NCBI GenBank assembly: GCA_973895155.1
Contig: OZ316894.1
Coordinates: forward strand, 1 to 64,000
Direction: 5' to 3'
DNA from: Marsupella aquatica
Taxonomy: Eukaryota; Plantae; Marchantiophyta
Length of the DNA: 64,000 bases
Shown: positions 9,012 through 56,991 of the stretch, in pieces
How positions within the stretch are numbered: the stretch's first letter is position 1
How the letters are laid out: every line of letters starts with the position of its first letter
Notes under the pieces: model-generated
Databases searched by the model: none
What the model was told of the DNA's origin: nothing
What the model saw: only the letters and a program-made list of their open reading frames with translations
Translations under genes and position numbers: made by a program

Positions 9012-9500
9012 ATCCTCAAGACACTAAATCCTTTTAGTGTTCTGTGCAGTGTCATTCATGCCAACATTGTACAAATATTGAGGCGAGACCAAGGAAAGAA
9101 CTGTACACTCCTTGGGACAAATCAATAGTAGATTTATGAAGGTGAGTACCTCAACATCAAAATTCCCCCTTTCTCCCCACCTACATGTTGAATTATTCAT
9201 AAATCTAATGATAAAAATTACAACTTACGGCATTTCGGTACTCAGATCTGAAATGGTTCGTGTACTATTTGACCGGAATTGTAATATTTACTGAATTGGA
9301 ATTAGAATAAACAAATTCAGTGGATTTGTTTGCTATAGTGTGGGAAAATCTAAAAAAATTGAACACCATAAAATTAAAGTTTACACTTTATTGGATTCTT
9401 TGTTATAAAAACATTCTTGAACTGTTTGTTAGAAAAGTTCTTAAACTAAAGTCCTCAAGGTTTTGAAGGACAGTATTTTTGAATGGCTATGATCACAGAT
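9012..9500 (+). pseudogene. Truncated, decayed 5' part of the TET/JBP-like dioxygenase gene (paralog of 35563-36160)
   Basis: Shares GAAGGTGAGTACC donor, GGTACTCAGATC..AAATGGTTCGTGTACTATTTGACCGGAATT intron sequence and WE.LKKL.T.KLKF.L.WIL coding sequence with the 35.6-36.2 kb gene. Confidence 0.8.
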
Positions 9501-9554
9501 CTCACCTTTTGGACGTGGTTACAATTATCCCTATTTTCATTGCTCCCCATGTGA

Positions 9555-19847: not shown

Positions 19848-19850
19848 CTT

Positions 19851-23132: not shown

Positions 23133-24509
23133 ATGCTCCATAAACGAAGGGAGAGGAGAAAAAATGAAAATAAATTTCATGAATATGGCGCCGAATTTTC
23201 TATCATAACATTTTGTTCAATATGGGATTATCTAAGCAAATTATGTGAATCTAAACAACAATTTATTTTATATTGGATTTTAAAAAATGAAAATATTTTT
23301 GTATATTTTGTTACACACATTTTACAAATAAATGTGTCCAATTTTTCAAGAGCTAAATTTTTGAATGGGTATAACAACTGCAGAAGTGCAATTCCACCAA
23401 TTCTCCCTCTTCAAACACTTCAACAAACCGAGAAAATCTTTCATCATCATCAACAGAGACAAAAATTGCCTCCACTATTGAAAAAATTCATGGGAAAATT
23501 TCACATCCTTAACCTATCCCAACTCCGTACCTTACAAGTAGAGAGGGTAGCTTCTTGTAAAGTTGACAATACATTCTCTTCAACACAAGTAGAAGTGCAA
23601 CAAATATCAAAATCACAACTGAAAAAATTGACTGGAGTGATAATGGGAAATTGGAAGGAAGACATGACTAAAACCAATCATAGTAATCTTACATTCACAT
23701 TTGAGCGTTATCCATCAAATTTTCTAGTGATAGAGAAATCTGAAAATATTGTTTACTTTTACGACAAGTCAGGGAAAAAGCCTTGGCTTGTAGCAATGCT
23801 CATGCACCAACAAATATTGGGAGTGACAACATTACAATTCATTCGAAAACTTTTGAGTGCATTGTTTGTTGCTCATTCTCCATTTCAAAGAGGCGAGGGG
23901 AAAAAAGCTTTTGACAGCTTCATGACAGGATATGGTCCTTGGAATAGCAGTTACATGGGTGGCCGTTTGACTTATTACACACACCAGAAGAAGATGAATA
24001 CCATTTTCGATGATTGCCTTGATGTCAAAGATTTTGAGAAGTGGATCGATAAATATTCACATATTGAACTTATGGATATTATATTGGGCCTTTATATGTG
24101 GTGGTGCCCAGAGATGATAGAGTGTTTTTTGGAATACTCTCATCCATACTTACTATCATCTGATCGTGACAAACATCATGGAAGTGAAGAGCAGATAGGG
24201 GAGAATGTTAGACCTAGTACTTACCAATTATATATAAGTGAGGATTATTGTGTGCAAACACATGCTGATGATGATGCAACTGACTTCACCTTAGCGTATG
24301 CTAGTCATCCTGACCATTTCCTTTCAGCAATCGATTTTGTAATTCCAGAGTATGGAATTAGATTGCCAATTAGAGATGGAAATCTATTTGCATTTCGGAG
24401 CGATGTAGTTCATGGTACAGGCTTTAGGATGAAAACATCGAATCCTGCATATGTTGGAGCTATTACCGTGAATAAAAACCTCAGCAGACTGATGCAAAAA
24501 TTACATTAA
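23133..24509 (+). CDS. TET/JBP-like Fe(II)-dependent dioxygenase (458 aa from ATG 23133), apparently intact
   Basis: DSBH motifs: FMTGYGPW...YY; THADDD (HxD); FVIPEYGIRLPIRDGNLFAFRSDVVHGTG (distal His). A TTTTGCAG acceptor lies immediately before the ATG. Confidence 0.7.
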   Translation: MLHKRRERRKNENKFHEYGAEFSIITFCSIWDYLSKLCESKQQFILYWILKNENIFVYFVTHILQINVSNFSRAKFLNGYNNCRSAIPPILPLQTLQQTEKIFHHHQQRQKLPPLLKKFMGKFHILNLSQLRTLQVERVASCKVDNTFSSTQVEVQQISKSQLKKLTGVIMGNWKEDMTKTNHSNLTFTFERYPSNFLVIEKSENIVYFYDKSGKKPWLVAMLMHQQILGVTTLQFIRKLLSALFVAHSPFQRGEGKKAFDSFMTGYGPWNSSYMGGRLTYYTHQKKMNTIFDDCLDVKDFEKWIDKYSHIELMDIILGLYMWWCPEMIECFLEYSHPYLLSSDRDKHHGSEEQIGENVRPSTYQLYISEDYCVQTHADDDATDFTLAYASHPDHFLSAIDFVIPEYGIRLPIRDGNLFAFRSDVVHGTGFRMKTSNPAYVGAITVNKNLSRLMQKLH

Positions 24510-26060: not shown

Positions 26061-28256
26061 TATAGTTGTAGTTTGCCAGAGAGAACCAAAAGCACACTTT
26101 TATGTCTCTAAACTTTTATGAACCCTAAAGTTCCACTGACCATTTGTCTTATGAATCTATACAACACAGCGGAGTTATATGAATTCACATGGTCCGAGAA
26201 TTCCCAAGATTACAGGGATTTATGAAAATATACATTTTGACTGGGATGACAAAGATTTAGAGTAAAGATCTCTTTATTTTCACACAAAGTGCATTTTGGA
26301 ATGACATGGGAGTTTGAAAGTTTAGATGGATATCCTCTACGAATGCATGATTCTTTCAACATCCCATCCGAGCTTACAACTCTTTTTGGTCTTTCTCCGT
26401 GGTTTAAAAAGCAAAAGCCAACGCCCGCTGAATGGCTCCCTTTTTGCTAAAAGGCGTTAAAACAGAAGCTCAATTTAGTCAATTGACACATTAGCTGTCC
26501 GCTATAAAGTTGGATTGCACGACATCACAAGTGACGTGTTTACCATGTTTTGGGAGCTACTCCTTCGCAGTAGCTGTCACCTTCTCCCAAGCCTGGTGGG
26601 TTGTGTTGTTGAGAGATCGCTACTACTACAGTACTCGTTCTGTTGACGGACGATCAGCTGGGCAGGAAAGCAAGGAGCGATACAAATCAGACTTCGAGAT
26701 TTGTAACTCGATTCTGACTTCTGTGTCAATTAGTAACATTTGGCAGTACTATCTGCGGGTTTCCTTCTCAAGCTATCACCAATGGAGAAATCGAGTCGTT
26801 GGTCAGTCTGTTTTACTGGACCATTGCACCTTCATTCGCCGGTGCCCCATGATCAGAAACCAGCGTCAATTGTATCAGAATTTGTGAAATCAAGATCTAA
26901 AGTGCCTTGGTCCTCTTAAAGCGACAGGTTGCCAACCAGCTTTCATAGCAGATCGGAAGGAAAAATTGAACTAAGTCTGCCTCACTGAAGGTGCATGTTT
27001 ACGGATTTTACACATCTTGCCTCTACCACTTCTGTTGACATTTTGTCCTAGCTCAGTGACTAAGGTCGACTTGCAATGATATCCAAAACGTACTCTATGT
27101 TAAGTGTATGCGGAAAAGAGATAGTCCTATGAATATCTTAAGAACATCCTTGAACTAAAGGACATGAGGGGCAATTTGACTAAAACTTTGTACAGATCGT
27201 TTAGAGTAGGTCCATATCAGTAGACATAATTTTACGGCTGGAGTTAGTAGCCACTTGGATTAATACAACACGGCACCTTAGGCATACTCCAAATCCCACC
27301 TTGTAATTTTACTGGAGACCCCAGTTTTGATCAGGTTGACGGCATCTTGTCTACTCAATTGATTCAGAGCCCTACACCAGCTTGCCAATTTGTGATGGCA
27401 TAAACGAAGGAATTTTGCGTCCTCATCGGCCGCTGCAGTCTAGCTCGTCTACCAGCAAGACAAGCGCGAACCATACTTACACCAATAGGTTCAGATCCAT
27501 GATTTAGGAAAATAACCTTTTTGGGGAAGCGTTCGCGGAACCAGATGGGACCCGGCCCCGTGCCTATCAATCTCATGAGTGCCTCTGTAATTATTTGCCT
27601 TGTTTTGAGCAGTCACTTACATAATCGTACTGTCTGGAGTCTCCAGACAAGAAGGTTTGTTTGATTTTTGTCATCGCTGATCCACATCGTGGGTCGTCTC
27701 CTCGATTTAGTCGCGTTTTTGTTATATCTGATTGGCATGTACGTTCCATTTGTGAGTACGTTCTAGTGAGAATCCTCCTTGTTACTACCTGCTCCAACCA
27801 CCCTGGATTGCTATGCGTGGGTGAGCAGAGTCTTTCTTGTTGCCTAAAAAAAACCAAAAGAGCTCCATTAAATTAGTCAGCATACAGAAAGGCGGAGCCC
27901 CAGAAAAGAGCGCCAACCCAGGTGGACCGAAGGTCGATGTGCCGGGACCTGTGAAGCAGAGTCTCTTTCAAGCTTCTCCTGTCGGTGGAAAATTCCGAGT
28001 CCCAAATCCCAAGGGTGTAGCCCAGGTCTCTCCTCCAACCTTACTCAACCCCAAAAGTAGATTATCTGGAACAGTGGGATCGCCTCAGTGGATGGGAGGG
28101 GTGGGGGGCTCCAAGATTCCCCACTGTAGCCTCCCATGGGAGTCTGGGCCATGTCTCAGTCCCAATGCAGGGGCTGATAAAGAAGGCTCCAAGAGGGTTG
28201 GTTTTCTAGAGTTAGAAAGTCCGTAGCCCCTTGTGTATCCTCAATCAGCCAGCATA

Positions 28257-29935: not shown

Positions 29936-32900
29936 GACTCCACTATAGCCAGCAGCCCATGTTCAACCATAACTATGACATCTGGTCAGCTTGGTTAAGC
30001 TTTATTCACTATGATCCAGACCTGTGGATTTTCTTTCCACACCAAGGCGAATTTAAGCAAGTGGACATTTCAATATCACCCACATCCCTAGCCAACCACA
30101 TTTTCTCTACTGCTTTCCTGAATGCATGGCCGAGAATAAAAGGAACGTAGACGTCGCATGGTATCTAAACTTTAGTGTGCACGAGTTTTAGAGTGACGTT
30201 TTGGCTTACTGTCATATTCTAGATGGGATGTGCAAGCTACTGTAGTTTCGGAGTTGTTCTGCAATGATATAACGCTATCATGTGGACAACTTTCTGGAAA
30301 TTCTAAAGTATTGGAAGTTAGCATCCTTCTGGTTTTCTATGGTTTCTCCCCGTTGCGCCGAATGTTCAGTTGAAGCTGATGAACATTTTATCCTCTCTCC
30401 CTGCGTAGCTAATTTTTGGGTGTTGTCGAGGAAGTGCTTCATCTGGAAAAGAAGTCTTGCAAATCTTGATTGACTACTTTAGTGTCTGCTACGACCCATT
30501 ATCGATCCCATGGTTGGCGAAAGCCTGTCTGAAATCATGCGTAATTAATGAAGCCAATCGGATTGGCACTGAGCAATCGAATACTCCAATTTGGGCAGAG
30601 TTCGGCTTTGAGACTGTACCCAAACTAGCTTGCTGAGCTAGATGCTGAACTACTCCACGCCCAATCAAACTCGGCCCCGGTGCCAATAGTACTACACATG
30701 CTATCGCATCATACCTAGCATGAAGTCTACACATGCTATCGCATCATACCTAGCATGAAGTCAGCTGATCAGATTGTACACACTACACTGCTGGTCAGGG
30801 CTCAAATGCGAAAGCGTTATCCCTGCTACTGGGGCCTACAGCAGCCTTAGCTCCTGCAGCAGATTAACAAAATATGCAGCAGCCGGGGCTGGGGCCAGAG
30901 CTGCAGGTCCAACCGCTCCAGTTGTTGAGGCGCCTACAGATCCTGGTTCATTGGGGTCATTCGGCCCATTACTCCCTTTGTTGCAAATCGACAGGCGCTT
31001 CAATATTTTGTTAATCATACCTCAGCGCCTACCCTTGCCCCATCGCCTCTATCTTAAAGCAAGATGAGCACCCGCATACGACTAATGTCTACCCAACACT
31101 CCCTCTTTCTATTTGGCCGCGCCAGCAGCCAGCCATGCATTTGCAGCAAGGTGCAAATTGGCATGACCAACACGACACAACAGTATGAAGTATTTCGAGA
31201 TCAAAATTCTTCTCGAATCTCCAATGTGTAAATGCGCACTGTATACGGGGCGAAATACTTCTCCTTCAATGTCTGTCTAGGTTGTTTCGAGCTGCTGCAG
31301 TTGTACTCTTCCCTATAAGCGAGTTCTTGTCATTGGAAATGGAATGTGATTTAGTGAATGCCTTCTGCATATCAGGGCTAGGGACATCTACGATATTTTC
31401 TGTAGATGGCAATAGGAAAACATAGGAAATGATGGTGGATATGTGCTCCTGTGTCGTAATTGTTTTTGTTTAGCTACAAAATAATGTTCTGGACCTAATT
31501 CCGACTTTCTATCTAGTTGACTTGGTTTAGAAGATGCTACTGGCTTGGTGGTGCATAAGGATCAACGCAATAAACTATCTTCTGCTACAGTTTAGTTCCT
31601 GGCCATATCATGATTGTTTATTAAGATTAGTGGAGTCCCTTACCATGTGAGAAAATCAGTCGGTGCTTTCATCTCCACAACACTATACTGCCATAGCAGC
31701 CCACTTATCATCCAAGGTTTCAGATTTCAAGCTGCCTGATTTTGAGGATTACTACTCATTGTGAATAAGAGACTCGACGTTTCAGATTAGGTCGATCGTG
31801 GTCTGCAGAATGCGGTGAAAACTACTTCTCTCCTCGTCTATAACGTTTGTAATCTAAGTTGAATCATTATTACTGGAACTCGGTCACTAGCCAATTTCAG
31901 AACAACCTTTCGTGGGCGACTTCTTGCAATATTATTGATGGACCTATATCTACTCTTCATTGAAATTAAGATGTGGGTACGATTCTTGCCTCCTTGAGAA
32001 CAGATGATATTGCAGGCATTGTGAGAAGTATTGTCTAGATTGAATGAATATCTACTACTCCCCTAATTCGATTATGCTGGAGGAGGTGCTGCATTCCACA
32101 GAGAAGTGTTGATGAATACTGTTATTACTGCGCTTGAATAAATGCTTGCTCTCTCCATTCCCAACGGCAAGGTTTATAATTATCAGATATTGTCGGCCTT
32201 GGTAAAGTCATTGACCTTCCCCCATTGTGAAGAGAAGATGATAAATTCTATCCCCACGCTAGCTATGTCCTTATGCTCCCCGCTCCTCCACTACTTAGAC
32301 TGCTACGCAAGTCTTACAAAGCCAGGCCGATGCTGAACAGGGGAATATTTCCCATGCCATAAGGTCAGCTGCGCCACCACGAACACCTCCCGGAGCCTCC
32401 TTCCTCCGACTTCCAATCCCCGAATAAGCACATGCCCTGCCCTGCCTAGGACTTCACTCTCGTGTCTCAATCGCAGTCATGAGTTCAGCATCATTGGTAA
32501 TACCTACGGTGGTCCCCTGTGGCGCTGCTCTCCTTTGTATTGCGCGTGGGAAGACCAAAATCTAGCGACATTTTCAAACCATGTATTGTGCAACCGTTAT
32601 GAGCAACTCGCATCCTTTGCTCACAAATTAACTGTCTTTCTCTGTCACGCCCACGGTTTTGCTGCTGAACTTTGCAATTTCAAACACTTCAACGTAGGCC
32701 TCTTTAACTTTCTCTGGGCGCTTCAAGGAGATGGATTCCAAACAGCCCTCCACCGGGATATAATCACTGAGACTACACTTCAATGCCTACAACGTCACTA
32801 CGCGCGCCACGAAGCGAAGGAAAGGAATGACGGAAAAAATGTGGCAGAGGCTTGCCTTCAGCTCGGAAGCTCTTCACCAACAGCTCAGTCGCACCGACAA

Positions 32901-33799
32901 ATCAAGTGCGAAACCTCTAAGTTGGCCTACATTGAAGTACCTAGGACTTCTGATTGCTGGTCTCATAGCTCGCAAGGTGCACTGTCAAATTCCCATAACG
33001 CCACGTTCGACTGGCTCAGCTCCGCTGTCAAGAACGATGGGCTTAGCCTTCTTAAGGTCGATCCACTTACGGTGACAATTCTCCGAGGAGAGCTCCTGGT
33101 CAAACTCTTGAGTGTCGTCCACCTTGAATGAACCGGAGCTAACTCCTTTCCAGCTTCCTTTCTTCAACTGCGCATGGCCAGCCTGCTCTACTTTCAGCTT
33201 TCCAGATGCTACTGCGCGTCAGGGAGAGCACTATGGGTTGTGGGTTGGGCAAAGCCTTCCCTCCAATCCACAATAGTTTTGAATCCCTTTCCACCAGCCG
33301 GCTTAGCCCTGCCTCACTGATGTCCCCACCTTGCCAGAAAGCCACATTTTCATCCTTGTAAAGGGATCGTGCACTTTTGGAAGACCGAAGCCTGACGGGT
33401 GCAAGATTGGGGATATCAGCGGAACTAGGGATTCCCCGGAAAACCAGCATCCAGGCAAGGCATTCTTCAGTTTCAGCATCCTTTCCTGAGCTTCCAATCC
33501 TTGCTGAGAATCAAAGGGCAAGAGGGATTCCAGAGCCCACTCTAGTGTTTGATGCTATGGAATGACATCTAATTTTAGGGTCCCTAAACCCTAGTGACAT
33601 CTATTTGTAGGAAAGAAGTCTTCATTGTTTACAAACTTGATTCATGCTTGTTTCATACAAGTCCTTGTATTAATTAAAACATCAATGTGCTCTTAGTTAA
33701 GAAAACTACTATTGGGGAATAAATGACCTTGCCATGAGTACTCTATTTGGATGGCAGTTTTTACTGCAAAAGTGAGGAGGTCTGGCTGGGATGGGACAT

Positions 33800-34041
33800 C
33801 ATTGGGTTTGCGCATTCTTAAGCCATGAATTGCTGACTATTTTGTTCAAGATGACTCCAAAATTCAATGAATCCAGTATATACTAGATGGACTAGGTCTA
33901 TGCAACTAGGATGGGAGACCTTTTAATATTCATTGGGTTTGCACATTCTTAAGCTATGAATTGCTGACTAGTTTGTTCAAGATGACTCCAAAATTCAATG
34001 AATCTAGTATATACTAGATGGACTAGGTCTATGCAACTAGG
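33800..34041 (+). repeat. Tandem duplication, ~131-bp period
   Basis: CATTGGGTTTGC.CATTCTTAAGC...GGTCTATGCAACTAGG twice. Confidence 0.85.
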
Positions 34042-34536
34042 TTAGGTTTTCTCTTCTGACCATGTTGTCATTATTATAACAAAAATTAACAATCTTTATT
34101 TAGTCCAATTTTAACTCACAAATTTCCAACCATACTTTAATAACCTATAATTAATTTTTATAGATAATTTTTGGTTACATGCATGAATGATCTTAGTGTA
34201 CACATGATATATGACATTGAAATCTACAATTTATTATGTAACCCTAAGGATTATCATTGCAATGACAATAATTCTTTTGAATCCTTTGTATTTTATCTCA
34301 TTCGTATCCTTGTTTGAAATGGTGTTGCAGAGTTCCTTTGGCTCTTCATGTCAACATAGAATCAAGGTGTAGGGTGAGCAATTGTAGTAGTGGATCAGAT
34401 CTCTGCGTGGGCTCACGAACCTGAAGGTAGGGCTGGTGTCCATCCTATACACAGTGACACTTCCAATTCATTCCAATTACAGCAAATATCTTTCCAGCAT
34501 GTCAACTAAATTGCAATGTCTTATTGATTTGTAGGC

Positions 34537-35217
34537 ATGGCATGTAACAAGCAGAAGGCCAAGAAGCCTAAGACGGAGGTGAGCAACACACAGGTGTCTT
34601 GCACAGATTGTGAGAATTTCTCCAAGAGTCAAGTGTACCAGAAGGCAGCTCATTGTTGTGCCATTTGTGATGATGGTGGGGGCTTGGTTATCTGTGATGG
34701 CCCATGCACGAGACATTTCCACCTAAACCCTGAGTCTAACCTTGCTGTAGAGAACAATTGTCCAGGGGTGGGGCTCCCCTCTGCACACAAGGGAGCCTGG
34801 ATGTGCACTGATTGTGTAGAGAAGCAAGCTAAGTGTGCACAGTGTGGAAAGTTGGGGTCTTATGAGACCTTTGCTGATGCCGGACTAGTTGTTAGGAAAT
34901 GCCCTGACAGATTTTGCATAAGATTTTATTGTTTGTCATGTTTGCCTACTCATGCCACAGTCTGCCCACTTCATACATGCAAGGCATGTGGTGAGCATGA
35001 TGATGAGTATTGGACAGACATAGTCCATTGTGTTAGATGTCCCACAATGTGGCATTTTCATTGTTTGAAGGACCTTCAAGCAGAAGGCTATGCTTGTGAC
35101 AGAGAAATCTATGATCACTCTGCACATGGCGTTGATCGATGGATCTTTTACTGTCATCGCCATCCGATTGATCCTACTTTGCATACTCCTGTCAGAGATC
35201 ACATATCTTGGCTTTGA
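34537..35217 (+). CDS. Stand-alone EDM2-type multi-PHD zinc-finger protein (226 aa)
   Basis: CAICDDGG.L..CDGPC.RHFH...C.DC....CAQCGKLGS...C..RFYC..C...CPLHTCKAC...CVRCPT.WH.HCL...IFYCHRHPID..L.TPVRDH matches the EDM2 PHD module, including its TPVRDH tail. Acceptor TTTGTAG just before the ATG. Confidence 0.85.
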   Translation: MACNKQKAKKPKTEVSNTQVSCTDCENFSKSQVYQKAAHCCAICDDGGGLVICDGPCTRHFHLNPESNLAVENNCPGVGLPSAHKGAWMCTDCVEKQAKCAQCGKLGSYETFADAGLVVRKCPDRFCIRFYCLSCLPTHATVCPLHTCKACGEHDDEYWTDIVHCVRCPTMWHFHCLKDLQAEGYACDREIYDHSAHGVDRWIFYCHRHPIDPTLHTPVRDHISWL

Positions 35218-35613
35218 AGCTGAACGAAGTGGGTTGGTACAGTGCCCCTAATGTGGATGTATTGTTTGGAGATTACAGAGAGTTCATTTTTGATGAGAAG
35301 GGCCATTGAAATATTAGGCAACAGTTATCTTGTGCTTACATGTGGCTAGGTACATGCCACTAAAAACTTACCTTAAGCCTTCCATGATCTCTTCAGACTG
35401 AGCAATCATTTTGAAAATTAATAAAATTATAAACTTATTGTTATGTGTCTATGAAGTATAAGGCTTTCGGATGACAAATTCTTAGTTTGTATAAATTCTT
35501 GATTCTGATTCAATGGGTAGTCCTTCATTTATAACATACTTTATATGTATTATCACAAAACAATACTCAAGACACTATCTCCTTTTTGTATTCTGTGCAG
35601 TATCATTCATATC

Positions 35614-35727
35614 AACATTTGTACAATATTGAAGCCAGACCCAAGAAAAGAAGTGACAACTGCTTTCGACAACATTTGTACAATATTGAAGCCAGACCCA
35701 AGAAAAGAAGTGACAACTGCTTTCGAC
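35614..35727 (+). repeat. 57-bp exact tandem duplication in the upstream exon of the second dioxygenase gene
   Basis: AACATTTGTACAATATTGAAGCCAGACCCAAGAAAAGAAGTGACAACTGCTTTCGAC x2. Confidence 0.9.
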
Positions 35728-35922
35728 AAATCAGTACTTTGGGAAGGTGAGTACCTAAACATCAAATTTATTTCTTTTTGTCCTCCTAAATCTTAAATGG
35801 TTCATAAATCCAATGACAAAAGTTACTTACGGCATTTTGGTACTCAGATCTTAAATGGTTCGTGTACTATTTGACCGGAATTGTAATTTTTACTAAATAA
35901 ATTATTTGTTCTTACATGGCAG

Positions 35923-37286
35923 ATGGGAAAAAGAAAGCGTAATACTTTAAGAAAAAAAGAATTGGGGGAAGATTTTTCTGTGGATGTATTTGCTACAGTG
36001 TGGGAAGACCTCAAAAAATTAGATACCGTAAAATTGAAGTTTGCACTTCATTGGATTCTATGTCATGACAACATTCTTGAACTTTTTGTTAAAAAAGTTC
36101 TTAAACTAGAGTCTTCAAGATTTTCAAGAACACTATTCTTGAATGGGTATCAAAATTGTAGAAGCCATATCATTCAGATCTTTCCTCCTGAGGTGTTCAT
36201 TGAAATTGATGATATCTATTTTCATCATGGTTTCAGACTAAAATTACCTCAACCTTTGAAAAAATCAATTACTATGTTTTCTAATCTTGACATTAGAAAG
36301 CTTAAACTTTTCAAAAAGAAAGAGATAATCTTTGTAGAAATGGAGGAACTTATGCTAAAGTTGAAGTAGACGTTCAACGTATTTCCTCTTCAAAACTAAA
36401 AACACTTACTGGTGTAATTTTAGGTGATTGGGATCAAACTACAACAACATTTACCTCTGATCCAAACTTTATTTTCTTAAAATTTCCATCAGACCTCATT
36501 ATCGTAGAAGAAAAGAAAGGATTTACCTATCTTTTTGATAGGTCTGGAGTCAAACCATATTTGATAGCAATGATATTCCATCAAGATATCCTATCACCTG
36601 ATTCAATGGTCTTCATTCGAAGATTATTAGAATAATTACATGCTGCCCATCATGTTATCCAAAGAGGGAAAGGAAAAAGATCATGGGAAAGTAAGATGAC
36701 AGGGTTTGGTCCTTTTCATAATCCTTACAAAAAAGATCAAAGTTGTGTATCTTTTTATACTCATGAACAAAAGATAAAGACATTCTTCAATCAAGATTAT
36801 CCCGATGCAGCCAATTTTGAAGACATGGTAGATAAATATTCTCATCGAGAGTTAATCGACATTATTCTTGGACTCTACATGTGGTTATGTCCACAAATGT
36901 TAGACAGCTTTTTAGATTATTCTCATCCTTACTTATGTTCAAATGATTATAAGATGAACATATTTGAGAAAGCACTAAAATGTAAAGGTCCTAGTGCTTA
37001 TCAATTATATATTAGTAAAGATTATTGTGTAGAAACTCATGCTGATCATGATACAGCAGAATTTACTTTATGTTATGTTAGTCATCCTGATGCCAAGATT
37101 TCTCCTGGAAACTTTGTTATTCCAGAGTATGGAATATTATTACCTATTAGAGATGGTAATTTATTTTCATTTCGTAGTGACATTATCCATGGCACAGGAT
37201 ATAGAATTCCAACATCAAATTCTATATATGTAGGAGCTGTTACCATAAACAAAAAATTAGATAGACTTTTACAAAGAAAACATTAA
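35923..37286 (+). pseudogene. Second TET/JBP-like dioxygenase, disrupted
   Basis: Clear paralog of 23133-24509 (DKYSH.EL.DIILGLYMW.CP; THADHD; FVIPEYGILLPIRDGNLFSFRSDIIHGTG). Frameshift at ~36330 and in-frame TAA at 36633-36635. Confidence 0.8.
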
Positions 37287-38008
37287 TAAAAAAGTAAATA
37301 TATTATTTGTATTTATCATTATTTTTTATTACTTTGGACAAGTTAAAGTATGGATTCTTTAATTTAAGGAATATAGGATCATAGGAAAATGTGTAAGAGT
37401 AGGAATCATGGCATCTTATGCTAGGAGTGGAAAAACCAGAGGGTTAAGAGGAGATGATGGTCCAACAAAGAAAAGCTTCTTCAAGAGGAGGAGGTGAAAA
37501 GGACCTAGACAGTAGTGAAAGTAAGAATCTCAATATCAAGTGGATAATTTTCCTCAACATATCATACATCTCCCTTAAGTTCTTACAGAACCTTGAAAGG
37601 CCTATAAATACATCATCCATTTTGACACTCCCATCCACTACTAGGTGATTTATCTTGGAGAATAGAATGGGAGTGGTATTCTTGACCAAGTATTCATCAT
37701 GTTGGACCCTAGATATATCATTCATTTCATTTCATGACAATGAGCTTCAGAACCAATTTTCTAGAGGCAACTCAAAGGCTAGTTAGGACCTGATAGGCAC
37801 AGTACCAATCCTAATATTTCTTCAAACCAAGTAAATAGTTTTTTTTTCTTTCAAAAAAACCATAGAAACCCATGGGAAGGGGGGCCCAACAGGGCAATAA
37901 AAACCGAAGCAGCAAAATGCAAACTTGGTGAGACCAAAGGAGTCCAAAGGTGCGAGGGCTCAAAAGGAGGGAACAAGGTAGGAAAAAACACTAGTCAAAG
38001 GAAAATCC

Positions 38009-39447
38009 TGTAAGCTATAATTGTTTCAACTAGAAAGCCATGCATCCGAACGAGTAATCCACCTAAGACGTTCCTTACTCACCAACTCTTTAACTCTTAA
38101 TAATCTAGTATGTTTTCTACTAGGACCCGAGGCCTCATAAAGGCCATGCAAGGCATCCAATATTTCTGAAAGGAGGAGATTCAAGTTGAACCTTCTACTT
38201 GTCGTATAGCAATAAGTATCAAAAGTGTAATTTCTCACTTAAAACCGAGATTCTGATCCCTTAAAGAACGTATTTTGGTATGAATTGACTAACTTTCATC
38301 ATTCTGAGTGATATAGAACTCATAGCTCTACACTTTCTTTACTTCTCAACAAAATAAAGTAAACAAAACATAAAAGTAACTTAACTTCAGATTTACAGAC
38401 TAGAAAGGAAATGATTCCAGTTTTGGAGACTCTAGTAAATTATTGCCACACCTTAAGAAAGGACTTGGTCTCAATATAAGCACGCCTAAAGTCTCTCAAC
38501 TCATCAATCTTTCTACTGAAGATACAAAATTGAACAGAGATGAAGTTCTAAATCTGATAAACAAAGCAGCTTTTTGGTTGCAAATATAATGATATGCCTT
38601 AAAATGCCATCAACACGGTTTGACATCAGTGTCACACAATTCAGTCAAACTCTAAGTCATATTCCGGAACAAAGTAACTGTACTGAAAGCTCTGAGAATC
38701 AAATTTATTTCTCATTCATCAACAACTACTCTTGAATTGGCTAGCGAATCTTGACTCTACAAGCAAGCCTAGCAGTGAATTCAATACGAGTCTCAGAAGT
38801 CTGTAACTGAATTCAATCACCACAGGAATTCCTGAGTTTCAATCACAACTTCAAACAAATGTTGTTTCATTTCCATACAACGCACTCTCAACATGCCTTG
38901 TTACAATGGGAGGAGGGACTATTCAAAAGATCCAATTCTGAATAAAGTGTTGTCTCTGACTCTCTCTCTCCCTCTCTGGTTCAAATGAGCATCCTACTAT
39001 GTCTTATAAGTGCTAAGGTCCTAAAATGAAGGAAATATGAAAAGCTATACCTGTTGAACTTGAACTAAGTATGAGGAAAGTATAGCATAAGTACTTAGAG
39101 GTCGAAAAATACTACTATATGGGTAATCTATTTTGAAAGTTAAATCTAAGTACCGGAAAATAAGGGACGCTTCTAAAAGCGTCTGGTGTGGATGGACGCT
39201 TCTGAGCGTCAAGTCAGAGTGGACGCTTTTAGAAGCGTCATGAGTTAAAGTACTTGGGAATAGTCGACGCTGCTGAAAGCGTCGGGAGTGAATCATTGGA
39301 TAAGACCGGACATTTTTGGAAGCGTCGGTCAAAAAATGGTCGATGAGGGTAGACATTTCTGTTTAGCGTCCAGAATAGAACAAATGCTTGAAAAATGTTG
39401 AAAATAAACTGTCTTCCAAGAGGAATGGTAGAGATCATCATTCCACA
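38009..39447 (-). mobile_element. Probable 3' LTR of the Ty3/gypsy element
   Basis: On the minus strand a PPT-like TTTCAGTGGAGGGC is followed by TA then TG at 39447. Candidate end GCTTACA at 38009. No second LTR copy is visible, so the left end is uncertain. Confidence 0.45.
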
Positions 39448-39845
39448 TAGCCCTCCACTGAAATTTTGCCGTGTCCACACAAGACAACCACGCTTTGATT
39501 AAAGACCAGTGCTAGATTCTTCATCAAAAATCTTCTGGCTTGGGAATCCAAGTGATAAAAATCAAGGTCATAAAATTCTTCTCCAATTTGTAATGGCACT
39601 TGTTTTACTCTTCCCCAAAGTGAAATTAATCGTCCATCGATTGAGATTTGAGCACATATGGGCTGAACGTGTTGGCGAACTAATTGATGAAACAGTCTGT
39701 GGGACAGTAAATTTATTCCAGAGCCTGGGTCAATAACAAAGTGCTGAATAGTGTGTCCTTCCAATTTAATCTCCCCTTCAAGAGAATACTGAAATGCGTG
39801 GGAGAGAAAATCACAGCAATCCATAGTAGCTTTTACGGTCCACAT
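39438..39845 (-). CDS. Retroviral-type aspartic protease-like ORF located 3' of integrase
   Basis: FVIDPGSGINLLS (D-x-G-S motif)...IDGRLISLWGRVKQVPLQIGEEFYDLDFY. Confidence 0.6.
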   Translation of the reverse strand: MWTVKATMDCCDFLSHAFQYSLEGEIKLEGHTIQHFVIDPGSGINLLSHRLFHQLVRQHVQPICAQISIDGRLISLWGRVKQVPLQIGEEFYDLDFYHLDSQARRFLMKNLALVFNQSVVVLCGHGKISVEGYVE

Positions 39846-39954
39846 GATGACTCAAACAGAATAAGTGCTCCTCAGTGCTTCAATCAGGTCCATTCATACT
39901 CCAGGGAATAAACGCCCCTTCAAATCTTATATACATGAAGACGTTGCAAATCTG

Positions 39955-42363
39955 CTATCTACTCAACAACCCTTGAGTGACAACGTCCGGCCACGAAGGA
40001 GGAGTAGGTAACCTTACTAGTCTCCTAAGTGATTTATACCCTTGAGCAGAAGAGTTCATAGCCTTATTCCGTATCAACTGTTCTCGTAGCTTAACAAGCT
40101 CTTTCTCGTACTTATGCGGAACAACATACCCTTCATGGCAGACCCAAACAGAGTATTGGTATGGCCAAGGAAACTCTGGAGTTATTGGCGGAAAAGGAGC
40201 TTCAGCACGTCGGAGGACATATACCCAACACCAAATTTCATATTCCGAAAATTTATATCTTCTACCCTTATCAATGGGAGGAATAGCCTTACCCGGCTTA
40301 TAAGTGGGAATCAACATTCGAATACTCGGTAGATACGTACCAGGTAAAATCTGTTGTTGTTGATGTATACTCTCCATTTCCAGATGTCCGAAAGCTATCT
40401 GAAAATCATTCTTCTCCCACTTATGAATTGAAGCAAGGTTAGGTATAGGAATTAGGGATGGTAGTACCACTGTGTGCCGAAGTTTGGGAGGTACTCTGAT
40501 AATACGAGGATCTTCGTCTTCCTCTCCATCACTTGGAGCTCCTTTCCAACGAAAAATAATGTATGGGTTTGAAGAAGGTATCACCGACTCCTTAGTAGGC
40601 CAACGTGATAGTACAACAGGAGATGAAGATGCAGGAGGTGGAGAAGAATTCCCCATTGTCGTGTTGATGGGCTTCAGCTGCTCAAAATCTGGTGAATTTG
40701 CTTCATGAAAGATCTGTTGATTTCTTACACGACGCAACCTTTTCCCAGGTCTTCGAGTATATGTCACTTGAAATTGCTCCGTAATAAGTGAACTCTCATC
40801 TCCAAGTGATATCCGAGTACCCTTATCTTTGCTTGAATCCAGTAAGATAGAAGCTGATGCAGAGCTAAATGCCAAATCAGGTGTTCCAGACAAAGGTATG
40901 GGTGGAGATACACTCTTGGTCTCAGGTAGCCCTAAATTGCTTGAAGGTCCAAGAGATGGAGTGGTTTGTAGACTGTGTTGAGACTCAAGTAATCTCTCTT
41001 CTGGAAGGTAAGCTGGAGAAACCCAATCAATAGATGGGTGTGGAGGAGGCCCTTTTCTTGCCAATGCTTCTGCTAACTCCTCAGACATAATCAGCGCAAC
41101 TGTTATTCTGGTTTCAGGGGTCGGCCACATAGGAAATGGCATGACAAAATTAGGTGAAGTTGGTTGTCCAGCTACTCCTTCTACATCTACTATTTTGTCC
41201 TCTGAATCAGCCTTAAACAACTTTACAAGCTCCCGGCATGATACCGCCGGAGGTTCCATTGATTGTTGTACAAGAGGAACCACATCTAGGTTTGGGGAGG
41301 GACTACGAGAATCTTCCAAATTATACTCCTGTAAAGCTTTTAAAGCATTATTACTCACTTCCATGGGTGGTGAAGCAGGGTTCTGTGAAGTTTTATCATA
41401 CCCATCCGCTGCAGTAGTATATTGTTGAGGAGGTTCTCCTGGTAAGCTTTCTTCATCCACATCCATCCTGTCTTCATCATTCGCTCTGAAAGCAAAATTG
41501 TCCTGATCAAGATCTTGATCCTCTGATGGGTGGGAAAGAATTGGCTCGTCTCTCCCGCCAACTGGTTCTCTTGTCTCTTTCAGTCTCCGAACTTCATTTA
41601 CCAGCTCAGATTCTTCGCAAGTGAGTAGTTTGCATAACGCCACCAGTGTTGAACTGGATCGGACTTCTCGTACTTCCGGCAACTCATTTGCTTCACAGGT
41701 AGATGCGCTCCAATGGGTACGATAGAAGACTTTCTCTGAAAGGAGCAGACATTTATGCTTGTGATAAATGTGAGCTAGATAGGGAGTCAAGTTGGTAAAT
41801 CTTAACTTTCCAGCTTGCAACCTGCTACAAAAGTTCTTTACCTGGGTATGAATTACCCTATATAAGATCTTCGTCCAATTGATGGTCTGCTTCTGTTCTA
41901 ATGAAGAGATAACGGTGGCAGCAAAAGAAAGAGTAATACGTGTCTGACTCTCTGGATAGAAAATTGGTGACAGAAATCGAAAAACATGCTGCAAAGAGGT
42001 AACTAAACAGTCCGTGGTTACCCAATCATTTCGCCTCTTAAAGGATTCAGGAGCAAAGAAAGACTCTATATAAGCTCGGGGCTCTCCATCAATCTTCTGC
42101 AAATCCTCGCCCGTTGTCGGCGTCGAGTAGACTCCCGCTATGAGCGCTTCAGTCCAAACACTTGGATGCGAGCGGACACCGATTCCTTCCTCAGCGTCCC
42201 ACACACCTTGGTCGATGAGGCTGAACTCGCACATCCTCCAAGGGAAACGAAGTAATTTCTTCAAGCCCATCAATGCAAGATTCGTCCTCAATTGTCGGCG
42301 GTCCACCATATTCGACGGGATAATTGCGAGTATTGGTCGCGTCGTAAGTTTGGACTCCACCAT
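39955..42363 (-). CDS. Gypsy accessory ORF (plant-mobile/transposon-protein-like N-terminus plus Pro/Ser-rich tail)
   Basis: RSHPSVWTEALIAGVY...DC...VFRFLSPIFYPE...ITLSFAATV...INW..LTPYLAHIY resembles extra ORFs of bryophyte gypsy elements. Lies between integrase and LTR. ORF track starts at TTG 42432; first ATG is 42363. Confidence 0.65.
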   Translation of the reverse strand: MVESKLTTRPILAIIPSNMVDRRQLRTNLALMGLKKLLRFPWRMCEFSLIDQGVWDAEEGIGVRSHPSVWTEALIAGVYSTPTTGEDLQKIDGEPRAYIESFFAPESFKRRNDWVTTDCLVTSLQHVFRFLSPIFYPESQTRITLSFAATVISSLEQKQTINWTKILYRVIHTQVKNFCSRLQAGKLRFTNLTPYLAHIYHKHKCLLLSEKVFYRTHWSASTCEANELPEVREVRSSSTLVALCKLLTCEESELVNEVRRLKETREPVGGRDEPILSHPSEDQDLDQDNFAFRANDEDRMDVDEESLPGEPPQQYTTAADGYDKTSQNPASPPMEVSNNALKALQEYNLEDSRSPSPNLDVVPLVQQSMEPPAVSCRELVKLFKADSEDKIVDVEGVAGQPTSPNFVMPFPMWPTPETRITVALIMSEELAEALARKGPPPHPSIDWVSPAYLPEERLLESQHSLQTTPSLGPSSNLGLPETKSVSPPIPLSGTPDLAFSSASASILLDSSKDKGTRISLGDESSLITEQFQVTYTRRPGKRLRRVRNQQIFHEANSPDFEQLKPINTTMGNSSPPPASSSPVVLSRWPTKESVIPSSNPYIIFRWKGAPSDGEEDEDPRIIRVPPKLRHTVVLPSLIPIPNLASIHKWEKNDFQIAFGHLEMESIHQQQQILPGTYLPSIRMLIPTYKPGKAIPPIDKGRRYKFSEYEIWCWVYVLRRAEAPFPPITPEFPWPYQYSVWVCHEGYVVPHKYEKELVKLREQLIRNKAMNSSAQGYKSLRRLVRLPTPPSWPDVVTQGLLSR

Positions 42364-42603
42364 CGCATCAATCGTAAAGGACACTTCTCTTGCCGTTCCT
42401 AGAAGTGGACGCTTCTCGTAGCGTCCCGTCAAGACTAAGTTTTAGGGTGGACGCTTCTCTCAGCGTCCAGTGCAAAAACTAAAATTCCGAACACTTGTGA
42501 AGGGGGAGGGAATGCTGATTCTAATAAAGTACAAACTACCTACCGCCCTCCACTGAAACTATGACCTGTCCCAGGTGAAACACTAAATAGGAGACTCATG
42601 ATA

Positions 42604-43920
42604 TCACTTAACCCAGAATCCATTGATTCGGGTGTCAAGTGGGTGACCGTCTAAGGTAGTCAAGGAAACCGAACCGTTAGCCCAGATTTGGGTAACTCGA
42701 TAAGGACCAATCCAATGGGTATGGAGTTTCCCAGGAAATAACATATAACGGGAATCAAAGACTAATGCTAAATCACCAACATCTAAATTCACGACTCACA
42801 GCTTTTGATCATAAACAAGCTTACGCTTGTTCTGAATTGTAGCTGTATGGTCTAACGCTAAAAGTCTAACTTCTTCTAATTTGACAATATCAAAAAACCT
42901 ATGTGGGAGACTAGCCGCTGGAGAGAGACGGTTGGATACCAAGAGTCATTCTGTTGGGAAGGAGAATTCAATAGGAATGATACTGTCCAGGCCATAAGTC
43001 AGGTAGAAGGGAGTGTGAAGGGTTGTAATTTTCTTGGCAGTACGGTAAGCCCATAATGCAGAATGTAACTTCACATCCCAGTCTGTCTTGTGAGACTCTA
43101 CTATCTTATTCAGGATCTTGCCCACAATGCCATTAGCTCTTTCCGTTAAGCCATTAGCTCTGGGGTTGTAAGGAGTAGTTTTGCGATGCTTGATAAGATA
43201 TGTGTTAGTAATTAACTCAATAGTTGAGTTAAGAAAATGCAAACCCCTATCGCTTACCAACTCCAAAGGACACCCGAACCGAGTAATAATGTGCTCAAAG
43301 AGAAATGCAGCCGCTGTTGTAGCATCATTCTTGCGAGTGGCTTTAGCCTCCACCCATTTGGTGGCATAATCAGTGGCCAGAATAATGTATTTACTTTGGC
43401 TTTTTCGAGCTGCTGGTGAAATTGGGCCAATAAAATCAATACCCCATTTCTCAAATGGTGTCAAAGGCAGGATGGGCGTAAGAGGCCATTTGGAACTAGC
43501 AGTGGGTTTCCCTATTCTTTGACAGGGGTCACACGTCTTAATAAAGTTGTAAGTATCTCTATGCATGGTAGGCCACCAGTACCCAGCATCCAAAATTTTC
43601 TTTACAGTAGTATTGACAGCATAATGGCCACGTGTTTCTCCATAATGTAAAGCTTCAATTACTTGTGGGAGTTCCCTGTTCTCCAGACATCGTCGCATCT
43701 TCTGATCAGGACCTTGTTTAAACAAAGTGCCCTGAAGGATAGTATAAGGTCCCACCTTATGTGCAAAAACAACTCGTTCTTCCGCATTAAGGCCTTCAGG
43801 AAAACTACCATGAATCAACATGTGCACAATATCGAAATACGGTGAAGACTATCCTTCAATGTGCCACAAATGCTCATCTGGGAATTCATCAGAAAGATTA
43901 TGCTGATTCTCTGGCCCAGG
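42604..43920 (-). mobile_element. Ty3/gypsy (non-chromovirus) integrase, 5'-truncated, with premature stops
   Basis: HHCC (H..GHYA..YWWPTM..CDPCQR), DDE core (WGIDFIGP, SDRG, NGLTER), GPY motif (HWIGPYRV). No RT/RNaseH upstream. Confidence 0.92.
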
Positions 43921-44531
43921 TAAGATGCACGGGCATTGGGCAGGGTGAATCTTGTCAGAAGTTCACATTTGTTAGACTAGAACCATTGGGATGCACAAGC
44001 TTTGAGGTCTCCTAAGCAATCACCAGTGCCTTTGATTTTGTCCCTAAACTAAGCAAAGTTCTCTTGTAGCATGTTAAGGGGAGCCCTCTACCTCTAAACA
44101 ATGAGATCCTAAACTAATTTCACTTGAGACATCTCTAGGTACGTAAATAGACAAACACTCATCAGGGAGGTCCAATTCTCAATTTCAGAGACAGTAGACA
44201 TAGAAGTAGGCCCTATGGAGATAGATGAAATCAATAGAACTGAGAAACTAGTAGGGAGCAGGAAAACTACTCATACACAAATAGTCGCTTCCAAGTTGAA
44301 ATTCCAAGTTTTAGAATAGAAAGAAAAGTGACTCTTCTATGGTAATGATGGATAGAAACCAAACAGAGATAAATAATAAGAAAAAAAACAACTAATGCAA
44401 AGATAAATTGAATTTAGGGTGAAATGAATACAATGGGCATCATCATATATACGGGCATATATATCTCACAGCTTTGTTCATTAGAATCCCCTGGGAACTC
44501 CACATGTAGAGATTTTGACTTTGATTCTTAT

Positions 44532-47500
44532 CTAACTGTAATTGTAATCAGTAAACATATCAAAGTGAATTCGCTCCGAGGTCGTGTTGTCCCTTTGATC
44601 AAGTGCAGCATATCGAGCTTCCCGGTCTTCATCTACTTGCTCTTGTCTTGCATGACACTGAGCCCATCTTCTCTTACTCATGTCATTCCTAAATGCCATT
44701 TGTCTCTCCTCTCTCTGTCCGGGGGTTTCCTCGACCATAATACCTTCCTCATTGTACAGTTTACACACACCAGGTCCTCGCTTGTCTGAAAGTTGTAATT
44801 CATCATCAATGTCCCCTTCTTCTAGGGATTGAGTAATGAGGTAGGACTTACTGACACCTGCAGCACTTCCCCATCTTAACATAGGCAGCTCACCTTTCAG
44901 AAACCCAGCTGCCACCATCAAATTGTACATCCTAGCAGCCAAAGGCCTTGCTCGACTAAATAATTTCCACAAATCTAGACCACCATCCTCCATCTCTCCA
45001 GTAACTGAGATGCGGACATCTGCTTTCTTGCCTGACCTTCCCACAACTTCGTATAATGTTCTTGTGAAGCAGTACCATTTGAAATACCGAAGATCCTTGA
45101 GCATGTTGTTGTATGTTTCAATGTGATGGACACTCCACAACCATTTCTCGATCTGCTCCAAAAAACTTATCTGCTGATTTGTCCTGTAACTAGGTGTCAT
45201 TAGTATCCGGATACTTGGATGGTGCTGCCAGATAGAAAAGTAAGTGGGGGTCGCTTCGTACATAACAGCTATTCCATCCTGTCCTTCTATTTGATCTCCC
45301 TCTTGCACTTGGTAATCCTGTGGTGGATCATGATATCCCCAAAGCAAAGCGGGACCAAAGTACTTCCCAATATTATAATTATACACACCTAGCTCTAACC
45401 GTGTAATAACTACTTCCGTGGGAGTCACTGCTTCCCAATAACTACTTTTCTCCAAGTGAACCAAAGATACATCTTCGGGGTTAAAGGGGTATACATCATT
45501 TCTAAAGTAACCCCCTTGACGAGCCACCACCGCTGGGTCACGCCTCAATTCATAAAAGAACCTCATTGCCAAGTGACTAAGCTCAGGTGCAATTGGTAGA
45601 TTGAAACTCATCCAATCATCAGATACTACTATGTCAGAGGTGAAAAATGGGTTGAATGCGACAGTAACCCCGTCCCTCTCCATCTTCTTCCACTGGGCAG
45701 CCTCCAAAAATGTGATGAGTCGGGGAAGTGTATACTTCCCACAATTGATCCGTACTTCCAGAGCAGCCCACGTTTTCAATATCAAGGGCAACAACTCATA
45801 TAACTTACTATAAACATCTAGACAACATTTTCTCTGGTTATCCCTCTGTGCTAATCCCTCATGAACCATATTAGCCATTGCTTTAAGTGCAATAAAAGTT
45901 TCATTTTGAGGATGCTCCCTTTCTAATTCCGACAACATGAATTGAGCTATTCGACTGTTAGCCCGACCTCCTAATCTATAAGACAAATCCTCAGGTAATT
46001 GTACATTAATATGTCCAGACCACTCAAAAAAAGGCAGCATGAATCTAATCCTTATAGGGACTTCATCCCAAATCTGATCCCAATCTCCAGGTCTGATATC
46101 CCTTTTATTTACCTCTGCACTGGCCAAAATTATCCGAAGGGTTTCTAGTCCGAGGGCTTCATCAACCTCAATCGGATGCCAACCATCACTCTGCTCTCCA
46201 GACATTGTGGTCCAGTGGTTGATGCTGATCTTTTTCAGGATCTCAACTCGTTGTTTGTTTATTGGGTCTTTCAAAGCCCCATCCAATAACTTGGTGGCTT
46301 TCTTTGCTTCATCTCTCAACTCTTGCACTCGAAGTTCCCAAGCATCATAAGCATGTCGTGGTATCCGAACATCCTTAGAATTACATTGCACCAACTCTCG
46401 CTGGGCTATTTCACCCAACCACTTCTTTCTCTCCTTCTCTCTTTGCTTGGCACTTAATTCTAATGTTCGGATATACTCCACCCTCTCCAGGTTTTGCTGC
46501 TCCAACTTTTGTAACGCTTCAAAAGTCAGTGTGAGCTGCTGGGTAGTTTCTTTTAGCGACTTCTCTATCACTGTTATCATCTGAGAGGTATGACCTGCAC
46601 ATTGAGAGTGAGTATAGCGCACTTTAGCAAATTCATCTTCTAATTGCAGCCACTTCTCCTTTTCTTCTTCATATTGGCCTGAAGCCTCCTTGCTCGCTTT
46701 TTGGGCCTCCTTCAATTGTGCATTCAACTCTCTGCCCTCTTCTTCAAAGGCAGCTACATACCGACTCAATTCTTCTGCCTTTGTGGTATTCTGAGCGTGT
46801 TGCTTCTCTGCTTCCTTCCGGACAGTTGTCACTTCCTCTATCAGCAAAGTAATCCTTGCCTCTCTTTCTTGGGACTTCATCTCCTGCTCATGCAACATTT
46901 GTTCTCGTATCTCCACCTTCTCATTGAGGAGTCTCACCATCTCCTTGTTTTCCTTCAGCAAACTCTCCAACTTCTCAATCCTCTCTTGGAGCTTAAGGTT
47001 GGTGTTGGCGCTTCTGAACAGATCTTCTTCCTGCTGCTTTGCCTTTTCTCTCTCTCTTACCCCAGTTTCTGCTTCGAGTGCACAAATGTGGGCCAACCCG
47101 CACACTTCCTTGGCTTGATGTAACCACAAACGCTTGTCACTTCCTACAGGGAAGGGTCGATTAATAAACTTCATCCTCTGCTCAAAGGAGGTGAGCTCAG
47201 ACAGAACAACATTTGATAACAACTCTGTCAACACTGGTTGATGGTATACATAATCAGATTGGGCAGTGGATGTCATAGCTTCTTCTTCCTCTTCGACCGG
47301 GATTATCACTCTCCTTTTCTTTCTTTTCAAGGACTTAACACACACATTCCCCTTTATCCTCAATGTACGTAATCCTTGTGCGCCTTCTTCATCAGAATTG
47401 TCCACTTCATCTGCACTGCTTGAGACCAGGCCCGAGACCAGGGATCCCTTTGGGGCATAGAGTCTCGGATTATCTTCTTCCCCATCCTCGCTCTCCGACT

Positions 47501-56498: not shown

Positions 56499-56930
56499 CA
56501 TGTACAAATATTGAGGCGAGACCAAGGAAAGAACTGTACACTCCTTGGGACAAATCAATAGTAGATTTATGAAGGTGAGTACCTTAACATCAAAATTCCC
56601 CCTTTCTTCCCACCTAGTACATGTAAAATATTCATAAATCTAATGATAAAAATTACAACTTACAACTGCATTTCGGTACTCAGATCTGAAATGGTTCGTG
56701 TACTATTTGACCGGAATTATAATTTTTACTGAATTAGAATTAAAATCTTGAAAAAATTTATGTGGATTTGTTTGCTACAGTGTGGGAAGATCTAAAAAAA
56801 TTGACACCATAAAATTGAAGTTTACACTTTATTGGATTCTTTATTATGAAATATTCTTGAACTTTTTGTTAGAAAAGTTCTTAAACTAAAGTCCTCAAGG
56901 TTTTGAAGGACACTGTTTTTGAATGGCTAT
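56499..56930 (+). pseudogene. Second truncated, decayed 5' fragment of the dioxygenase gene
   Basis: Highly similar to ~9066-9500 (TGTACAAATATTGAGGCGAGACCAAGGAAAGAACTGTACACTCCTTGGGAC...) and homologous to 35620-36160. Confidence 0.8.
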
Positions 56931-56991
56931 CAAAGATGTCACCTTTTGGATGTGGTTACAATTATCCCTATTTTCATTGCTCCCCGTGTGA

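Follow-up and report, generated by a model that had tools for sequence, protein, structure and literature searches.

A standalone PHD gene and a TET/JBP-like dioxygenase gene in tandem in Marsupella aquatica: possible cargo of a mobile element

The stretch of DNA analyzed here (the window, 64,000 nucleotides of a Marsupella aquatica contig) is eukaryotic, spliced and rich in repeats. It holds an intronless gene for a PHD-finger protein, a gene for a TET/JBP-like dioxygenase downstream of it (dioxygenase 2), and an intact paralogue of that dioxygenase (dioxygenase 1). Their coordinates, with those of associated features, are given in Table 1. The original prediction had described an intronless 226-aa PHD module about 700 bp upstream of a TET-like gene on the same strand. 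This tandem was mostly confirmed, the distance from the PHD stop to the ATG of dioxygenase 2 being 705 nt. The downstream gene is indeed TET-like, but the copy at this locus is interrupted by a frameshift and a TAA codon. To our knowledge, TET enzymes are generally regarded as absent from land plants.

Table 1. Features of the PHD-dioxygenase locus and related segments of the window.
Feature	Position	Strand	Basis
Decayed dispersed copy of the dioxygenase 2 exon, intron and 5' coding part, then minisatellite	9012..9490	+	sequence comparison
Dioxygenase 1, intact paralogue, 458 aa from AG/ATG	23133..24509	+	alignment, fold
PTP-NADK domain fragment (plant NAD-kinase type), apparently frameshifted	33139..33510	-	Pfam E 6.8e-8
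Acceptor-like pyrimidine tract and AG, two bases 5' of the PHD ATG	34525..34534	+	sequence
Standalone intronless PHD gene, 226 aa	34537..35217	+	ATG 34537, TGA 35217; sequence, profile matches, homologues
Sole AATAAA/ATTAAA within 380 nt 3' of the PHD stop	35420..35425	+	sequence
Exon-like segment, 146 nt	35601..35746	+	splice-site and repeat analysis
Intron-like GT...AG, ending right at the dioxygenase ATG	35747..35922	+	AG/ATG, as in the paralogue at 23133
Dioxygenase 2, TET/JBP-like, interrupted	35923..37286	+	sequence, paralogue alignment
Second decayed dispersed copy of the dioxygenase 2 5' part, then the same minisatellite	56501..56934	+	sequence comparison

Several other features were observed in the window. 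The first exon of an SMC gene lies at 48-578 (minus strand), short interstitial TTTAGGG telomere-type repeats occur at 6794 and 7183, and plant P450 gene(s) were found at 13867-15953 and 19827-20192 (plus strand), one apparently frameshifted and the second a fragment. Dispersed and tandem duplications of 82-97% identity are present (2224-4694 versus 18943-22425; 10691-12861; 25403-26062). An LTR-retrotransposon-like block (39438-48688, minus strand) carries an integrase together with a pair of long accessory ORFs, 828 and 1110 aa in length, that have no Pfam match; two further intact ORFs, of 509 aa (53145-54674, minus strand) and 218 aa (51846-52502, minus strand), likewise had none. Adjoining the second dioxygenase 5' fragment is an intronless ORF of 1659 aa (57854-62833, minus strand) with a C2H2-like N-terminus, an OrsD domain and a RecQ-type helicase. 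Between these domains, residues ~751-914 carry motifs that we take, by eye, to resemble a tyrosine recombinase active site. The ORF may thus represent a fungal-type mobile element that combines recombinase and helicase.

The PHD protein contains a C4HC3 finger (C41, C44, C53, C57, H62, C75, C90, C93) and, at its C-terminus, a C4HC2H finger (C148, C151, C165, C168, H173, C176, C206, H209), with a partial finger between the two. In its Cys/His layout it therefore has the two and a half atypical PHD repeats, the last unit being C4HC2H, that are described for EDM2 and NSD1 in the available text of PMC7529245 and PMC3776765. Its Pfam matches were to PHD-1st_NSD, PHD_NSD and PHDvar_NSD (E 5.5e-5 to 1e-3, all below the curated cut-offs), and it matched residues 639-839 of NSD2 with E 2.3e-5 as a single sequence and 6e-11 with a five-sequence profile. 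As predicted, the other EDM2 domains are lacking: Pfam identified no ELP methyltransferase-like, PGR, acidic or proline-rich region in the PHD ORF or in the flanking ORFs scanned (30 of the 102 ORFs of at least 50 aa around the pair). Among the ORFs scanned upstream of the PHD gene, Pfam matched nothing but the PTP-NADK fragment; EDM2 domains are thus missing on that side. This fragment belongs to a decayed NAD-kinase gene piece (~32000-33510, minus strand) that stands head to head with the PHD gene. The PHD ORF is closed at both ends, and its closest homologue, P0001, starts at the same ATG. The acceptor-like tract before the ATG is probably the end of a 5' UTR intron of the PHD gene, and the AATAAA/ATTAAA hexamer beyond the stop is a possible polyadenylation signal.

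Four PHD homologues were identified among 31 candidates (220-245 aa; 79, 74, 58 and 44% identity). Three of the four share the W-L-stop end, and the remaining one ends 8 residues later. Of 231 pattern matches one, the metagenome locus L001, holds another intronless PHD copy with the same end, and a weak search for a longer PHD relative returned none among 1985 candidates. Because the homologues have the same length, the end is conserved and no EDM2 exons lie upstream, the PHD ORF is, as judged from these sequences, a member of a standalone EDM2/NSD-type gene family. The competing idea that it is one exon of a full-length EDM2 gene is rejected on the same grounds. The assignment to EDM2 in particular held only in part: the module is of the standalone NSD/EDM2 type, but the tools used did not separate an EDM2 origin from an NSD-type one. 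The homologue search of the PHD ORF returned no EDM2 sequence, and the nearest Atlas clusters were streptophyte (0.91) and chordate (0.90). At L001, the distant (44%) standalone PHD homologue (529-1200) has one in-frame stop at codon 22, so decayed copies occur elsewhere too.

Our statements on genome-wide copy number are based on contigs from four public runs (X1 to X4) mapped over 33500-38500; X4 is from a related organism (organism B). These contigs cover the flanks and the intron without splice joints and are therefore read as DNA, and they show that the locus is common to both organisms. We considered fungal or bacterial contamination; this is unlikely given the even depth of gene and flanks in X1, the nearby P450 that matches plant enzymes best, and the TTTAGGG repeats.

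In all four runs, contig depth was 100-540 in the flanks and climbed into the thousands or higher over the PHD ORF, with peaks of 20-500x; by the tool's own warning, such summed depth is not a copy number. Relative to each run's near-identical contigs, PHD depth at two positions was 33-45x in X1, 23-130x in X2, 216-502x in X3 and 386-437x in X4. As a rough check, a segment present three times in the window had a depth of 499-549 in X1 compared to ~100. Different parts of the ORF differ in depth (79 at 34886 in X1), which points to diverged subfamilies, matching conserved stretches only, as the source of the excess. From these depths we infer that the PHD family has tens to hundreds of copies. 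Eight of ten PHD codon variants were synonymous (among 40 of 428 rows listed), and the family is apparently old, under purifying selection and high-copy. Neither a poly(A) tail nor the TSD of a processed retrocopy was seen around the intronless ORF. The view of the PHD gene as a single captured retrocopy is not supported, since the ORF belongs to this apparently high-copy, purifying-selected family.

Two lesions break dioxygenase 2: the frame shifts within a T run near 36303-36307, and a TAA stands in frame at 36633-36635. Its HxD motif lies at 37038-37046 and its distal His at 37188. Contigs carry an extra T at 36303-36307 (79.5 of 89.6 depth in X1, 589 of 589 in X2, 364 of 381 in X4), X3 does not list this T, and the protein P0006, 73-79% identical, is open across the site. 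The frameshift is thus peculiar to the window and may be either a homopolymer assembly error or a private allele. At the position of the TAA, six homologues and the paralogue carry a residue (Gln in the closest). Dioxygenase 2 is probably dead or dying at this locus while the PHD gene is intact.

Parts of dioxygenase 2 also occur elsewhere in the window. A composite repeat (9012-9952 and 56501-57406) comprises exon, intron and 5' coding part of dioxygenase 2 but lacks the region around the start codon, which is deleted; an array of an 18-19 nt minisatellite follows. Depth in X1 suggests more copies. This arrangement looks like Helitron-type fragment capture.

The two dioxygenases are 51% identical over the C-terminal 329 aa (dN 0.31; dS ~2.0, near saturation; dN/dS ~0.16). 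There is no PHD gene beside dioxygenase 1, and the regions upstream of the two dioxygenases showed no similarity (score 55; shuffles mean 43, maximum 70). HMMER returned 12 homologues with a profile of the N-terminal 249 positions only, which places relatives with the catalytic domain alone out of its reach. One of them, P0008, is full-length and open (449 aa). All ten dioxygenase homologues that were looked up, and all 14 homologue clusters checked in total, were singletons without a family name. A word-index search with dioxygenase 1 yielded 0 of 4678 candidates; among viral contigs, 0 of 34 stretches matched the PHD protein and 0 of 33 the dioxygenase, and among prokaryote genomes the count was 0 of 105.

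Residues H378, D380, D382, H428, R433, Y441 and G443 are invariant in the four dioxygenases that cover those sites, as is R254 in all eight sequences that cover it. All four thus possess an HxD...H iron triad (H378, D380, H428). Its D-to-H spacing of 48 is that of CcTet (D328/H376), as given in the accessible part of PMC11040006. This paper and the accessible part of PMC7854593 describe a last-strand Arg that binds 2OG (R289 in NgTET1, R385 in CcTet). This canonical Arg is absent here: Tyr takes its place in 4/4 dioxygenases, and there is no Arg in either plausible register. The invariant R433 could substitute for it. In CMD1, the Arg points away (PMC7854593, in the text available). Table S1 of PMC12730594 contains ten PU-type TET domains whose motif order, by eye, is that of the dioxygenases, and 5 of these 10 rows also lack the last-strand Arg (three His, two Gln).

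We used an alignment-based model of the dioxygenase with a pLDDT of 47; a single-sequence fold (pLDDT 35) was left unused. Searched against 48161 chains, this weak model returned 2OG/Fe dioxygenases. NgTET1 (Z 8.5, 187 aligned, rmsd 4.9), TET2 (Z 8.4, 211, 4.8), CMD1 (Z 7.5, 230, 6.4) and CcTet (Z 7.4, 222, 6.0) were all in the top ten and had the longest alignments of those ten, while a prolyl hydroxylase shared first place (Z 8.7). With Foldseek the model gave nothing at E ≤ 0.001 and weak DSBH matches only. Searches of Pfam, NCBIfam and PDB sequences gave no dioxygenase match, and neither the window copies nor the 12 homologues matched Pfam Tet_JBP or 2OG-FeII_Oxy_6 at the curated cut-off. 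Members of the PE type of fungal TETs were likewise found by structure only, according to the part of PMC12730594 available. The Atlas neighbors, with scores of 0.92-0.96, comprised fungal clusters as well as clusters in which 15% of the members have 2OG-FeII_Oxy_6 or 16% have Tet_JBP; the recognition value of 1713 is under the tool's trust mark. On fold and motifs, the dioxygenases are very probably of TET/JBP ancestry; that they act on 5mC is less sure.

The 146-nt segment between the two genes holds an exact 57-nt tandem duplication (35613-35669/35670-35726) and is probably a 5' UTR exon of dioxygenase 2. Both dioxygenases start at an AG/ATG junction, which fits such an exon. An acceptor near 35600 and a donor at 35747/8 had been predicted. 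Both are present (AG ending at 35600; donor at 35747, 9/9 consensus) and are kept in the second copy at 9049/9143. The fusion that was proposed to run through this exon is not supported: the only frame running into the ATG at 35923 has four stops, and splicing into the segment from any GT of the PHD ORF leaves no open fusion. Fourteen GT sites would fuse in frame by skipping the exon. The two best (7/9), at codons 14 and 19, lose the fingers, and the site at codon 218 scores 5/9. A PHD-dioxygenase fusion protein is thus not supported by the sequence, and read-through transcripts across the pair are possible.

Is the pair one unit? In X4, 12 depth values between 35295 and 37162 were 337-665; a contig of 1275 nt that runs into the downstream flank had 51, so that these values are 6.6-13x higher. 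In X3, nine values across the pair were 4-14 times that of its flank contig. A contig joint from 35574 to 35738 had a depth of 426 in X4 and 1291 in X3, and depth dropped directly after the dioxygenase 2 stop. Six of nine rows of dioxygenase variants in the amplified copies were synonymous (among 40 of 428 rows listed), and the genes are AT-rich (GC 0.31-0.35 vs 0.43). Contig depth thus suggests, indirectly, that the PHD 3' end, the spacer and the dioxygenase were amplified together to some ten copies in organism B, an estimate of ~10x depth that rests on X4 and X3. No contig spans the pair. The depth of dioxygenase 2 in X1 (73-138) equals that of the flanks, and by this measure X1 has a single pair. 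The concern that the pairing is unique is weakened by the depth evidence from the related organism.

Because the locus is common to both organisms, a recent insertion is excluded. In X4, the PHD gene has ~40-fold the depth of the dioxygenase, which means that most PHD copies are unpaired; at L001 there is no dioxygenase in the 667 nt downstream of the PHD copy. In X4 the depth is elevated over the upstream flank as well (194-467 at 33500-34330). What was amplified thus extends beyond the pair, and its 5' boundary lies outside or at the edge of 33500-38500. No transposase or Rep/helicase was found in the 30 of 102 ORFs scanned around the pair or in 14 long ORFs of the window, and no convincing TIR or TSD in 33000-38600 or 22300-25400. 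One joint in X4 skips 34174-37840 and with it both genes. We do not take it for an empty site, because it has a depth of 3, covers 21 letters and falls at the edge of a low-complexity repeat.

The genes are real, and their pairing is suggestive. The reading that we favor, with a probability of about one half, is that a DNA transposon or Helitron-like element of the plant carries the pair as cargo and would use it as a two-part anti-silencing kit. Within this reading, membership of the dioxygenases in TET/JBP, drawn from the low-confidence model fold and motifs compared by eye, is likely, and so is a mobile origin, given the analogy to fungal and Chlamydomonas TETs of this kind, almost all of which are carried by transposons. 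Eleven fungal transposon lineages contain TET/JBP genes, for which a role in undoing silencing is proposed (available text of PMC12730594). In Chlamydomonas, 10 of 11 TET homologues are reported as transposon cargo (bioRxiv 10.64898/2026.10.09.758095, in the part accessible).

If the pair is such cargo, the PHD protein and the dioxygenase would be separate proteins made from separate or read-through transcripts. The dioxygenase would oxidize or otherwise modify 5-methylcytosine on element DNA. The PHD protein would bind H3 tails at heterochromatin, where it would guide the enzyme or compete with host readers, in line with the recruitment to H3K9me2 or decoy action that had been proposed; a free histone reader may thus guide the enzyme or shield the element. 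Dioxygenase 1 and the PHD protein, modeled together without alignments, scored 0.00, which gave no verdict on a complex. A bolder version, which we regard as doubtful, has a land-plant transposon lineage carry a chromatin-hijacking kit of two genes: a TET of the fungal PU type whose co-substrate site is altered, and an EDM2-type reader, free of it, that would target it to silenced chromatin. The kit would restore in trans an architecture of reader plus TET and would provide these plants with an oxidative route for 5mC, the PHD gene alone having spread to hundreds of copies.

Among the other explanations, the one that comes closest, though it is still somewhat unlikely, is that two independently mobile multicopy families came to lie 705 nt apart by chance in a repeat-rich region and were later duplicated passively in the related organism, by segmental duplication or Helitron capture, with no functional link. 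The vast excess of PHD copies over paired ones, the absence of a partner at dioxygenase 1 and at L001, the captured fragments that fill the window (the NADK piece and the dioxygenase 5' fragments) and the raised upstream flank in X4, which makes the amplified segment wider than the pair, would all fit. The compact same-strand layout, the drop in depth right after the dioxygenase stop and the mostly synonymous variation in both genes of the amplified copies argue against it. It could also be speculated that these are domesticated host genes, small PHD readers and dioxygenases of the plant lineage expanded in arrays for the host, of which the dioxygenase copy is a recent pseudogene. Although the shared locus, long purifying selection, the spliced 5' UTR layout common to both dioxygenases and the failure to find a transposase are compatible with this, it is quite unlikely in view of the very high and uneven depth of the PHD subfamilies, the 14 of 14 looked-up homologue clusters that are singletons without a family name, the scattered decayed fragments and the AT-richness of the genes.

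More improbable again is an enzyme of another 2OG/Fe subfamily, or with another co-substrate or substrate (a protein hydroxylase or a CMD1-like ascorbate enzyme), for which the link to DNA demethylation fails. Prolyl hydroxylases do tie with TETs in the structure search, the last strand has no Arg and Pfam gave no match, but the longest alignments are to TET-family chains, the Atlas neighbors agree with these, and the PU-type motif series is present, half of whose examined rows also lack that Arg. The form first proposed, a retrocopy of the PHD exons of host EDM2 spliced into a PHD-TET fusion protein, is the least probable by far. It would account for the intronless ORF and the good splice sites in the spacer, but in-frame routes through the exon number zero, skip routes are weak or lose the fingers, the stop position is conserved in homologues, and no poly(A) tail or TSD was seen.

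If the cargo reading is true, a high-copy standalone histone reader with a paired enzyme would be a new form of plant transposon anti-silencing. The broken state of the paired enzyme copy is a caveat on a functional link between PHD protein and dioxygenase. The intact TET/JBP-like paralogue, together with 12 relatives in unnamed records, is a directly testable candidate enzyme. In the literature found, neither a land-plant TET family nor a PHD-TET pair is described. Papers by Iyer may already include a remnant of a TET/JBP gene from a moss, and the present finding would then be less novel.

The PU-type TETs of fungal transposons (PMC12730594, as far as its available text goes) are alike, by eye, in HxDxD...H and in motif order: a helix, M-x-G-x-G, a strand with H-x-D-x-D-F/W-T-L, F-x-F/I-x-D/E-Y/F, F-R-S...H-x-T, an x-x-G strand and a terminal helix. 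Both groups are multicopy with decayed copies. In contrast to the PU type, the dioxygenases here have a land-plant host, an extra helical N-terminal region of 150 aa and Tyr, rather than Arg, His or Gln, at the head of the last strand; dioxygenase 2 has a PHD neighbor, and no transposase is shown for them. The term "PHD" is absent from the main text of that paper, and of its three matches in the supplement the two examined are letters inside sequences. CMD1 and the Helitron and DNA-transposon TETs of Chlamydomonas reinhardtii (PMC7854593; bioRxiv 10.64898/2026.10.09.758095) are TET homologues of the green lineage, with a structural match of Z 7.5, and CMD1 also departs from canonical 2OG binding, like the dioxygenase here. 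Unlike the present proteins they are algal rather than from a land plant; there is no sequence match to CMD1, and the available text of these sources mentions no PHD partner.

The PHD protein resembles the PHD cassettes of Arabidopsis EDM2 and animal NSD1/2/3 (PMC7529245, PMC3776765, in the parts available) in its two and a half atypical PHD units and C-terminal C4HC2H finger. It differs in that the module stands alone, without the ELP methyltransferase-like, PGR, acidic and proline-rich parts, and is intronless and apparently high-copy. The VANDAL/VANC proteins, which plant MuDR transposons use against silencing (cited in the accessible text of PMC12730594), have the same proposed role, escape of the element from silencing. 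VANC and the proteins described here are unrelated. VANC is reportedly a sequence-specific DNA binder with no known catalytic activity.
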